Shown here: positions 1,951-56,067 of the stretch, piece by piece
Layout of the letters: each line of letters opens with the position of its first letter
How positions within the stretch are numbered: the stretch's first letter is position 1
Origin: an uncultured Chloroflexia bacterium
GTDB lineage: Bacteria; Chloroflexota; Dehalococcoidia; DSTF01; WHTK01
Assembly: GCA_963768705.1 (NCBI GenBank)
Contig: CAVYJE010000028.1
Span: forward strand, 4,523 to 68,522
Direction of reading: 5' to 3'
DNA: 64,000 bases
Notes under the pieces: generated by a model
Database searches by the model: none
The model's input: the letters and a program-made list of their open reading frames with translations, nothing else
Told to the model about the DNA's origin: nothing
Translations under genes and position numbers: made by a program

Positions 1951-2824
1951 ATGACCGAACCCGAGAGCCGCTTCTTTCATTCCGCCCGTCTTCGTTTGCA
2001 CTACCTCGTCTACGGCGACGAATCGAAGCCGCCGGTGGTGCTCGTGCACGGCAGCCGCGATCACGCCCGTAGCTGGGACTTCGTCGCTGCCGGGCTGCTC
2101 GACCGCTACTGCGTCTATGCGCTGGACCTGCGCGGCCACGGCGACAGCGACTGGGCGGTCGGCTCCGCGTATTCGGTCGCGGCCTACGTGGCGGACCTCG
2201 CGAAGATGATCGACGTGATCGAACGCGGGCCGGTGCGGCTGCTGGGGCACTCGCTGGGTGGCCGCGTCACGCTGGATTACACCGCCGCGGCGCCCGAGTG
2301 CGTCTCGAAGCTCGTCGCCGTCGAGGGCTACGGGCGCCAGGGGTCGGCCGACCCGCCCGTGGAACGCCTGCGAGCCTACGTGAAGCTCGTGCGCGACCTG
2401 GAGCAGCGCGGCCCCCACATCTACGAGAGCCTCGAGGCGGCGGAAGAACGTATGCAGGAGGCCAACAAGCGCCTGACGCCGGAGATGGTGAAGCACCTGA
2501 CTCTGCACGCCGTCAATCACGTCGAAGGGGCGCAGACGGGCGGCCGTCAGGGCTACGTCTGGAAGTTCGACAACTACATGCGCCTGACGCCGGCGCCGGA
2601 GTGGACGCCGGACGACACCGTATGTGCTGTGGAAGCAGATCAAGGCGCCGACGCTGCACATCGGTGGCTCCGATAGCTGGGGCAAGCGCTTCTCGGACGG
2701 CCGCGAGGAGCTAACGGGCGCCGTTCCGAACTCGAAGACCGTGATTGTCGACGGCGCCGGCCACTGGGTGCACCACGACAATCTGCCGGAGTTCACGCGC
2801 CTGGTGCGGGACTTCTTCGAGTAG
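1951..2824 (+). pseudogene. alpha/beta-fold hydrolase, reading frame interrupted near 2620 (or assembly indel)
   Basis: ORF 1879-2676 carries VVLVHGSRDHARSW and the GHSLGG nucleophile elbow. The protein continues in the +1 frame as ORF 2624-2824 (LWKQIKAPTLHIGGSDSW...VDGAGHWVHHDN, the catalytic His region). The likely start is ATG 1951 (MTEPESRF). Confidence 0.75.
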
Positions 2825-2845
2825 TAGCACGGCCGAGTCTCCTTC

Positions 2846-4934
2846 TTACTTCGGCAAGCCCGATGGCCTGAGGTCCACTCTGCGGAGTAACTGGGCGTTC
2901 AGCGCGACGATGATGGTCGACAGGCTCATGAACACCGCCCCAATTGCCGGGGTAAGCGTGATGTCGACAAAGAACAGGGCGCCAGCCGCCACAGGAATCG
3001 CGATCAGGTTGTAGCCGGTCGCCCAGACAAGGTTCTGGAGCATCTTCCGGTACGAGGCTCGGGACAGTTGGGCGATGGCCAGTACGCCGCGCGGGTCGTT
3101 CGAAGCCAGAACGATGCCGGCGGACTCGATGGCAACGTCCGTACCGGCGCCGATGGCGATACCAACGTCCGCCCTGGCCAGCGCCGGTGCGTCATTGACC
3201 CCGTCGCCGACCATGGCCACGCGCAGGCCGCGACTCTGGAGCGTCTCGACCGCCTCAGCCTTGTTCTGGGGCAGGACTTCGGCGAACACCTCGTCGATGC
3301 CCAGCGTCTGGGCCACCGAATCCGCAACATTCTGGGCGTCCCCCGTGATCATGGCGACCCGGATGCCGCGCTCGTGAAGCTGGCCCACGGCCTCTCGGGA
3401 CACCGTCCCGCACCTGGTCTTCGAGCGCGATGGCGCCGGCCAGATGGCCATCGACGACCACGAACAGGACGGAGGCGCCACGCCCTCGCCACTGCTCTAG
3501 CTGTCCGGAAGCCTCCGGCGCTTCGTCGAGGCCCGACTCCGCGAGAAGCCGCGGGCCGCCGACCGCCACCGTGTGACCGTCCACGTTCGCGCTGATGCCC
3601 TGCCCTGCGAAGGTCTGGAAGTCGCTAGACTCGGGAAGATTTCCAGCCTGGTTAGCCGCCGCTACGATGGCCCGAGCGAGCGGGTGTTCGGAGTCCGACT
3701 CAGCGCCGCCCGCCAGCCGTAGCATCGGCGCCGGGTTGCCGTCGACTGCCCAGGTGCCGGTGACAACGTGTCGGCCTTCGGTTAGGGTGCCGGTCTTGTC
3801 GAACAGGACAACGTTGATCTGGCGCATGCGCTCCAGGGCCAGGCGGTCCTTTACGAGGATGCCGTTGCGGGCTGACATCTCGGTCGAAATCGCGATGACG
3901 AGCGGGATGGCAAGGCCGAGCGCGTGGGGGCAGGCGATGACCAGTACCGTGACCGTGCGCGTAATGGCGTCGTTCCAGTTGCCCCAGATGCTCCAGGCCA
4001 CAAACGTGATCAGCCCGGCCGTCACCGCCACGTAGAACAGCGCCGCGGCAGCCCGGTCTGCCAGGGCCTGAGAGCGCGAGCCGGATGCCTGGGCCTCCGC
4101 TACCATGCGCTGAATGCCCGCCAGCGCAGTCGCCTCCCCGATGGCTTCGACGCGGACCCGGACGGCCGACCCGAGCGCGACTGTGCCGGCGGCGACTCGC
4201 TCACCCTGGCCGCGAGAGACGGGTCGAGACTCACCGGTGATCATCGATTCGTCGAAGTCGGCCTGGCCTTCGACGATGATTCCGTCGACCGGCACGCGAG
4301 CGCCGGGGCGTACGAGGACAACGTCGTTCACGGCCAGCTCAGACACGGAGACGTGCTCGGTGCCGCCATCGGTCACGCGTTCGGCATCGTCTGGCAGCAG
4401 CTCCGCCAACGCAGCGAGAGCGCCCCTCGTTCGCCCGATAGCGGCCATCTCCTGCCAGTGGCCCAGGAGCATGATCGTTATCAGGGCCGATAGCTCCCAC
4501 CAGAACTCGAGGTCCAGCAGGCCCGCGGTCGTTAGCGCGCTGGCCGTGAACGCAACGACGATGGCGAGCGAGATCAGCAGCATCATGCCGGGCTGCCTGT
4601 CCCGCACCTCGCGCCATCCGCCGACGAGGAATACGCGCCCGCCGTAGACAAAGATGAAGGCGCCGAGGATGGGTGAGACGAGCTGGTCTCCCGGGATGCG
4701 GTTGAGGGAGTATCCGAACCAGTCCTGAACCGTCTCGCTGAAGAGGACGACCGGAATCGTCAGGAGCAGCGTGAGCCAGAAGCGTTGGCGAAACGCCTCC
4801 GGGTCGTGCCCCTCATGCCTGTCATGGCCACCGTGGTCCATCTGCCCCGACGGGCTCATGTTGTGCGCCGAATGCTGAGAGTGGTCAGCGTGCTCGGATG
4901 CGTCAGCGTGTTCCGGCATTCGATGGTCTTTCAT
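2846..4934 (-). pseudogene. copB: P1B-type heavy-metal ATPase, CopB-like (His-rich N-terminus, CPH motif), frame interrupted near 3403
   Basis: ORF 3255-4934 has the His-rich head MKDHRMPEHADASEHADHSQHSAH...HGGHDRHEGHD plus TGES, CPHALGLAIP and DKTGTLT. ORF 2846-3481, in the next frame, supplies [15 protein letters not shown] and the last two TM helices. The junction reads ...IALEDQVRD|[13 protein letters not shown]. Confidence 0.8.
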
Positions 4935-54757: not shown

Positions 54758-54857
54758 TCACCCCTGAATCCCTGGACGGCCCCGAGGAGCGTTCAGACCA
54801 GCGACCCTGTCACCCAGCAGTGTTTTCGGCCCCGTAGCAGCTAAGGAGACCGTACCG

Positions 54858-56067
54858 ATGAGACGAAGCACCGACCGCATCCTGGTATCGCATGCCGGGA
54901 ACCTGCCGCGCCCCGATTACATCAACGAGCTGATCGACGGCGGCCTGTCGCGAGAAGGCTCCCTGGGCGCCGAGTACGCCGCGCGCTTGCCCAAGGCCGT
55001 GCAGTATGTCGTCGACCGCCAGATCGAGGTGGGCGTCGACATCGTGAACGATGGCGAGTACGCCAAGGCCGGCAGCTACGGCGGCTACGTCCAGGACCGC
55101 CTAACCGGCTACGAGAACCTGCCCGTCGACCCCTCGAAGCCGCCAAAGCGCTTCGGGACCGCCGAGCGCGAGCACCGGGACTTCCCCGGCTTCTACGCCT
55201 CCGGCCTGTGGTACTCCGGCTCCGGCGGCCCGATCCGTCCCGGCTTCGCGACGCCCGGCGAGGTGCGTCCCACGCCCACGACCTCCCGCGTCTGCACCGG
55301 ACCCCTGGTCTACACCGGCCAGGCGATGGTCGATGCCGACGTGAAGAACCTGAAGGCGGCGATTGCGGGCAAGGACGTCGAAGGCTACATCGCCGCGCTG
55401 GGGCCGTTGAGCATCGGCGCCAACGCCCGTAACGAGCACTACGGCTCCGAAGAGGAGTACATGATGGCCGTTGCCGAGGCCATTCGCACCGAGTACAAGG
55501 CGATCACGGATGCGGGCCTCATCGTCCAGGTCGACGAGCCGGAGTTCTGCACCACGTGGTCGTTCTACCCGGACTGGAGCATCGACGACCTGCGTAAGTA
55601 CCTCAACTTCTGCGGTCGAAGTGATCAACCACGCCATCGAGGGCCTGCCGGAGGAACTCGTGCGGTTCCACACCTGCTGGGGCTCCGGCCACCGGCCGCA
55701 CGTGTACGACATCGAGCTCAAGCACATCGCCGACATCATGCTCAAGATCAACGCACAGCAGTACAGCATCGAAGCGGCCAACGTCCGTCACGAGCACGAG
55801 TACCACGTGTGGGAGGACATCAAGCTGCCGGAGGGCAAGATGCTGATGCCCGGCGTCCTCTCGCACGCCACCGACCTCGTCGAGCACCCGGAAATGATCG
55901 CCGAGCGCATCGTGAACTACGCGGAGCGCGTCGGGCGGGAGAACGTACAGACGGGCACGGACTGCGGTATGGGCTCCCGTGTGGGCCACGAAGAGGTCGT
56001 CTGGGCGAAGTTCGCCGCGATGTCCGAAGGCGCGCGCATCGCCTCAGAGCGACTGTGGCGCAAGTAG
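54858..56067 (+). pseudogene. second MetE-C-terminal-like protein, frame break about 55609
   Basis: ORF 54858 (ILVSHAGNLPRP...VDIVNDGEYAK...IVQVDEPEF...DDLRKYLN) continues in the +1 frame as ORF 55471-56067 (AVEVINHAIEGLPEELVRFHTCWGS...IEAANVRHEHEYH...TGTDCGMG). It is a paralog of 47936-49075. Confidence 0.7.

Follow-up and report, generated by a model that had tools for sequence, protein, structure and literature searches.

We have analysed a stretch of 64,000 nucleotides (the window) from contig CAVYJE010000028.1 of an uncultured Chloroflexia bacterium (positions 4,523 to 68,522) and found 22 reading-frame breaks in eleven of its genes. Each break consists of one surplus base, and not a single break of the opposite kind was found. 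We consider the 22 surplus bases to be insertion-type consensus errors in a long-read metagenome-assembled genome (MAG), with a probability of roughly 0.93, and the eleven genes to be unbroken in the organism itself, which is probably a Chloroflexota (Dehalococcoidia-like) soil bacterium. We infer both the absence of the extra bases from the actual DNA and the cause of their clustering in islands. An earlier note, made from the letters of the window alone, had arrived at the same reading. It is strongly supported, though not proven, by intact orthologues in short-read assemblies, preserved selection on the broken genes, the lack of stops and of a common motif at the breaks, and the same bias in related MAGs.

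The G+C content is about 64% across the window, and the third codon position is strongly G+C-biased. The reading frame was traced with two reference-free seven-state Viterbi models in which in-frame stops were penalised, one based on G+C by codon position (GC3) and the other on codon usage trained on long open reading frames (ORFs). Both tracers independently recovered the frame hops, every one of them in the surplus-base direction. Intact orthologues were also aligned to the amidohydrolase, coenzyme A (CoA)-transferase, MetE-like, MTHFR-like and NnrS genes of the window by a purpose-written protein-to-DNA aligner, which may skip one base (a surplus event) or read a residue from two bases (a missing event). 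Only surplus events were obtained, with zero missing ones. Residue numbering was uninterrupted across the junctions, except for a one-residue gap beside the event at 13874, in a poorly conserved stretch of NnrS. No other residue is lost at the junctions, which argues for one-nucleotide insertions and not two-nucleotide deletions at these breaks. The direction of the breaks (22/22 surplus) has a two-sided P of 4.8e-7. The 22 sites and the uniform direction claimed in the earlier note thus both held: each site was found within a few bases of its original position by frame tracing, alignment, Pfam continuity and start-of-gene logic, and the careful alignment, which according to the note might have refuted the uniform direction, revealed neither a missing base nor a stop.

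In a scan of 185,579 species-representative genomes, the closest sequence was a contig (L001) of the MAG MFD05684.bin.1.350, labelled 'uncultured Chloroflexia bacterium', with about 82% nucleotide identity and collinearity over 44.2-58.5 kb of the window. The remaining relatives are Dehalococcoidia-type MAGs. Several of the nearest relatives are Nanopore-only MAGs of Microflora Danica (MFD names), a long-read catalogue that was assembled with Flye and given one round of Medaka polishing (PMC12313526). Two other related sequences, L002 and L012, also provided orthologues for the alignments.

Deletion of one base at all 22 sites resulted in eleven full-length proteins with a terminal stop only and with single-stretch, end-to-end Pfam matches, in agreement with the previous description of eleven genes that can be read only by hopping frames and that contain no premature stops. 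The Abhydrolase_1 profile of the alpha/beta-hydrolase, which was split into 1-116 and 195-244, became a single stretch of 1-244/245. In the CopA-type ATPase, the Hydrolase domain is divided at the break, with profile positions 1-103 read in the frame before it and 104-191 in the frame after it, and the reconstruction has 695 aa without an internal stop. For the ECF sigma factor, Sigma70_r2 and Sigma70_r4_2 are encoded in successive frames, and both are present in the reconstruction. The reconstructed MTHFR-like protein covers 3-286/287 of the MTHFR profile. In the conserved frame of this gene there is no ATG, GTG or TTG between the last stop and the domain, and an ATG (15587-15585) is found one frame back. 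In the NirK-like copper oxidase gene, the twin-arginine signal peptide MTSRTEQGVTRRSFMEKALMATGV is encoded in frame f1 and the mature protein in frame f2; the Cu-oxidase domains are present in the reconstruction. The HTTM match increased from profile positions 60-248 (70 bits) to 5-255/259 (86 bits) after deletion of both surplus bases, and the Leu_Phe_trans match of aat, found as 1-104 and 108-170 in two frames, became one stretch of 1-170/171 (234 bits).

Table 1. Reading-frame breaks and selenocysteine insertion genes in the window (positions are those of the window; "surplus at" gives the extra base as placed by alignment).
Feature	Position	Strand	Gene	Remarks
Break 1	2615..2625	+	alpha/beta-hydrolase (~1951-2821)	frame +0 to +1
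Break 2	3393..3405	-	CopA-type P-type ATPase (4934 down to 2849)	
Break 3	5257..5324	-	ECF sigma factor (5555 down to 4994)	linker of region 2 and region 4; localised only to interval
Break 4	13700..13704	-	NnrS family (14666 down to 13339)	surplus at 13702, aligned to L012 NnrS orthologue
Break 5	13872..13876	-	NnrS family	surplus at 13874, frameshift-aware alignment
Break 6	14762..14765	-	MTHFR-like (15587 down to ~14675)	surplus by 4/4 reference proteins
Break 7	14976..14979	-	MTHFR-like	frameshift-aware alignment
Break 8	15326..15330	-	MTHFR-like	surplus at 15328, frameshift-aware alignment
Break 9	15545..15585	-	MTHFR-like, near 5' end	placed by start-codon logic, not by orthologue alignment
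Break 10	16250..16262	+	NirK-like copper oxidase (16191-17211)	inside Tat signal peptide; start-of-gene logic
Break 11	23850..23865	+	HTTM domain (23677-24590)	frame +0 to +1
Break 12	24470..24485	+	HTTM domain	frame +1 to +2
Break 13	29478..29486	-	aat, leucyl/phenylalanyl-tRNA-protein transferase	
Break 14	50446..50450	+	amidohydrolase (49860-51078)	surplus at 50448 against L001 and L002 orthologues; L001 CCGC-TG, window CCGCTTG
Break 15	51375..51381	+	double-domain family III CoA-transferase (51084-53349)	first of seven; L001 GGC-CCG, window GGCGCCG
Break 16	51604..51607	+	CoA-transferase	frameshift-aware and nucleotide alignment
Break 17	51771..51775	+	CoA-transferase	surplus at 51773, frameshift-aware and nucleotide alignment
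Break 18	51880..51884	+	CoA-transferase	surplus at 51882, frameshift-aware and nucleotide alignment
Break 19	52117..52120	+	CoA-transferase	L001 GCC-CTG, window GCCGCTG
Break 20	52536..52540	+	CoA-transferase	surplus at 52538, frameshift-aware and nucleotide alignment
Break 21	53206..53210	+	CoA-transferase	surplus at 53208, frameshift-aware and nucleotide alignment
Break 22	55609..55613	+	MetE-like, Meth_synt_2 (54858-56064)	surplus at 55611; L001 TTCT-CGG, window TTCTGCGG
selA	29951-31336	-		
tRNA-Sec	31367-31463	-		
selB	31535-33427	+		
selD	33441-34484	-	selenophosphate synthetase	in-frame TGA 34434-34436

The breaks are strongly clustered, as had been noticed before. A scan statistic gave P = 0.0014 for at least seven breaks within 2.27 kb, and the break-free gap of 21 kb has P = 0.003. 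Twenty-one of the 22 breaks fall in four islands of at most 5.2 kb each (2.6-5.3, 13.7-16.3, 23.9-24.5 and 50.4-55.6 kb), and the other one, at 29.5 kb, is isolated. A renewed search for further breaks, especially of opposite sign, found none at 29.5-50.4 kb or in pepN, clpA, selA, selB or selD, so that the break-free regions named in the earlier note stood. Candidate frame changes at 8.5, 35.1, 35.8, 42.6, 57-58 and 63 kb proved to be gene boundaries or a selenocysteine codon and were rejected as breaks. The sole in-frame stop between co-framed ORFs is this TGA selenocysteine codon.

Analysis of the sequence context showed that the break sites are not enriched in homopolymers. Within 4 nt of a site the longest run averages 2.27, against 2.37 for random positions (P = 0.76), and a run of more than 4 nt occurs within 4 nt of 0/22 sites. 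The window has 46 homopolymer runs of at least 5 nt, the longest of 6 nt, and none of them is affected. The hypothesis of a classical Nanopore homopolymer-length error was therefore rejected. The previous remark that deletion of one member of a doubled base restores most junctions turned out to be uninformative, because a doubled base occurs within 2 nt of 81% of positions picked at random. When the window was aligned with L001 at nucleotide level, about seven of nine surplus bases stood at non-repeated positions, such as GGC[G]CCG, GCC[G]CTG and TCT[G]CGG (surplus base in brackets). The codon and surplus base at the junctions are varied (CCG[C], GGC[G], TAT[C], GAT[C], TTC[T], GAA[C], TAC[T] and others). 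No shared motif or methylation-like palindrome was evident at the 22 sites by inspection, without a formal enrichment test, as there are only 22 sites and each can be placed only to within a few bases. There are no zero-frame stop codons at the junctions, and the upstream frames run on for tens of codons without a stop.

The orthologues of the broken genes are intact. In L001 the amidohydrolase, the CoA-transferase and the MetE-like gene are each a single ORF, and the amidohydrolase orthologue of L002 is intact as well. The comparison at nucleotide level with the closest genome, which the earlier note had proposed, showed that L001 lacks the surplus bases at the compared sites. For the 757-aa CoA-transferase, nine full-length orthologues (L002, L005 and L013-L019) were available from contigs and MAGs of short-read metagenomes, and their roughly 6,800 codons contained zero frameshifts. 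Metagenomes were scanned with the reconstructed CoA-transferase as the query, and the best match, with 72-75% amino-acid identity, was used only as a control for an intact orthologue.

Purifying selection on the broken genes is preserved, and the rate of the CoA-transferase is not accelerated. The ratio of nonsynonymous to synonymous substitution rates (dN/dS) against L001 is 0.10, 0.17 and 0.13 for three broken genes and 0.03-0.16 for five intact neighbours. In Tajima relative-rate tests with six outgroups, the branch of the CoA-transferase that is broken seven times had 26-29 amino-acid changes, compared with 44-55 in the intact gene of L001. At columns that are otherwise invariant, the CoA-transferase of the window has only 5 private substitutions, and no other distinct lineage has so few. 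Such a short branch speaks against a long-dead gene, as the time needed to gather seven frameshifts should give the opposite pattern.

Related long-read MAG contigs of the Flye type share the surplus-base bias at other positions, with error islands on the kilobase scale. The clearest one is L009, a contig of the public Nanopore-only Microflora Danica MAG MFD04944.bin.2.8. Its errors are concentrated between 5700 and 12000, where an island of about 6 kb and five genes contains 37 surplus bases against 4 missing ones; the rest of this 21-kb locus is nearly clean. These 41 events in about 6.2 kb correspond to around one per 150 bases, and the proteins are still 72-86% identical to their orthologues. 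Single surplus bases were found in L001 at about 1364 (GAG[A]CTC), within an ABC substrate-binding gene whose counterpart in the window has no break, and in L012 at about 10820 (CGT[G]ACC), in the MTHFR gene. We also observed that a protein in a public collection, P0012, bears an out-of-frame C-terminus from a single-surplus-base frameshift of this kind (the L001/L012 pair). The island of L009 lies on the operon orthologous to the one with the largest cluster of the window; this may be a coincidence or may reflect ascertainment, as that operon was the one used to retrieve the locus.

Frameshifting indels in assemblies made from long reads only (Nanopore or PacBio continuous long reads, CLR) have been measured with IDEEL and removed by polishing with short reads or by homology (PMC9262707; Homopolish, PMC8011154). 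Their occurrence is coverage-dependent, and they are well documented in Nanopore-only consensus below about 40-fold coverage (PMC9262707). The breaks of the window are similar to these in that genes which would otherwise be whole are split by single-base indels, and short-read assemblies of the orthologues lack these. Several of its nearest relatives come from Nanopore-only MAGs made with Flye and Medaka (PMC12313526). The breaks differ from the errors of the literature, which are mainly in homopolymer length, since no site is in a run of more than 4 nt and the bias is purely towards insertion. The consensus of the islands was probably poorly supported, which might reflect a local dip of read depth over about one read length, an effectively unpolished stretch, or a mixture of closely related strains. 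Island sizes of 2.7-6 kb are about the length of a read or of a polishing chunk.

Several points weigh against a consensus error. The usual residual Nanopore error concerns homopolymer length and is often a deletion, whereas the sites in the window are insertions outside homopolymers. No same-species sequence for a base-by-base check was found either, the best being 82% nucleotide identity among species-representative genomes and 72-75% amino-acid identity among metagenome contigs, and exact-protein matching of four intact window proteins found no independent copy on record.

The origin of the errors in a collapsed-strain consensus is a special case of the assembly artefact, and one that we regard as possible but doubtful. 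Here both alleles of a single-base difference between strains would have been kept side by side, adding one base. Such a mechanism would account for a bias made up of insertions only, for contexts outside homopolymers, and for clusters in places where related populations contribute reads to one pile-up. Several junctions can be read as two alleles, often synonymous ones, such as CCG{C,T}TG (Leu), GG{C,G}CCG (Gly), AC{C,G}GCG (Thr) and CC{G,C}TGC (Pro), together with T{A,T}C (Tyr/Phe) and {T,G}CG (Ser/Ala), and the islands in the window and in L009 lie on one and the same orthologous operon. However, a random inserted base fits these junctions equally well. The comparison has low power, most insertion slots being next to a third codon position, and the shared operon might follow from the way in which the L009 locus was fetched.

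If the bases were real, the eleven genes could be very recent pseudogenes arising from genome decay or from a burst of +1 insertional mutagenesis. The bases are indeed present in the given sequence, and the clustering could in principle reflect lost selection on the nitric oxide (NO)-stress locus and the CoA-transferase operon. In genuine pseudogene accumulation, as in Mycobacterium leprae and recent endosymbionts, insertions, deletions and stops are mixed and dN/dS is raised. The window is like such decaying genomes in having many frameshifted genes, but all 22 events are +1 without deletions or stop codons, dN/dS is as low as in intact genes, and there is no acceleration of rate: the CoA-transferase with its seven breaks has a shorter branch than the intact sister gene, and at invariant sites it has only the 5 private changes. 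Breaks also occur in housekeeping genes, for example aat and copA, and L009 shows the same pattern at a density (about one event per 150 bases) that cannot be biological. We consider pseudogenes highly improbable on these grounds. Still less probable is that the surplus bases are real through a purely insertional mutagenic burst in kilobase-long patches or are read by a motif-independent +1 or quadruplet decoding.

Programmed +1 frameshifting, as in prfB and genome-wide in Euplotes at AAA-TAA/TAG, uses a conserved slippery site with a zero-frame stop or rare codon, and the orthologues share the shift. Rescue by transcriptional slippage in endosymbionts requires poly(A) or poly(T) tracts of about 7-9 nt or more. 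The window is like the former in the direction of its breaks and like the latter in having frameshifted-looking genes under selection, but it has no shared signal, its orthologues are unshifted, and its longest run is 6 nt with none at the breaks. Correction of real bases in expression, by programmed +1 ribosomal frameshifting, quadruplet decoding or transcriptional slippage, is the least probable of all: the uniform +1 direction is what such decoding would need, but the junctions have no common codon or motif, no zero-frame stop and no run of more than 4 nt within 4 nt, and the orthologues are unshifted at the break positions.

With the breaks taken as consensus errors, the observation describes the assembly and not the organism, and it has no biological importance, because the eleven genes should count as intact. 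It does matter for the use of the assembly. Gene callers will report about 33 fragments instead of 11 genes, and errors will follow in the pseudogene counts of this MAG and in conclusions on its metabolism, affecting among others NO stress, copper export, the CoA-transferase and aat. An error profile of insertions only, outside homopolymers and in kilobase islands, could escape homopolymer-centred checks and whole-genome coding-density filters. As the same signature is found in at least one public Nanopore-only MAG (that of L009), users of such catalogues are advised to carry out frameshift-aware checks locus by locus.

The break-free stretch of the window contains a complete set of genes for selenocysteine insertion at 29951-34484, all intact. 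The selD ORF runs upstream through an in-frame TGA (MSREQVRLTSLASCAG-U-AGKAGPG) at the position of the catalytic Cys/Sec, so that SelD itself appears to be a selenoprotein; this stop is not an error. Next to the sel genes, at 34603-35910 (+), two co-framed ORFs are split only by a TGA at 35107-35109 (ILVPV-U-PNCTR). The upstream part of this gene matches the Pfam family GRDB (glycine/sarcosine/betaine reductase selenoprotein B) over profile positions 205-345/347, and the gene likely encodes another selenoprotein.

The region at 12405-17211 looks like a nitrite/NO-response locus. A regulator of the Rrf2 family precedes the MTHFR-like, NnrS, PAS and CopD-like set, and the divergent NirK-like copper oxidase gene (16191-17211, +), whose product is predicted to be exported by the twin-arginine translocation (Tat) system, follows it. 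The gene order MTHFR-like, NnrS, PAS, CopD-like is kept in L012 at 10001-13104. A second MTHFR gene, which is intact, is present at 8558-9514 (-).

A segment of 2.6 kb at 39018-41682 has weak coding potential. It contains one regulator with a BTAD domain (SARP-like) at 39769-40539 (+), and no convincing genes were found at about 40.6-41.7 kb. The operon of the dioxygenase, amidohydrolase and CoA-transferase is flanked by two MetE-like (Meth_synt_2) paralogues, at 47936-49075 (+) and 54858-56064 (+), which are about 44% identical to each other.

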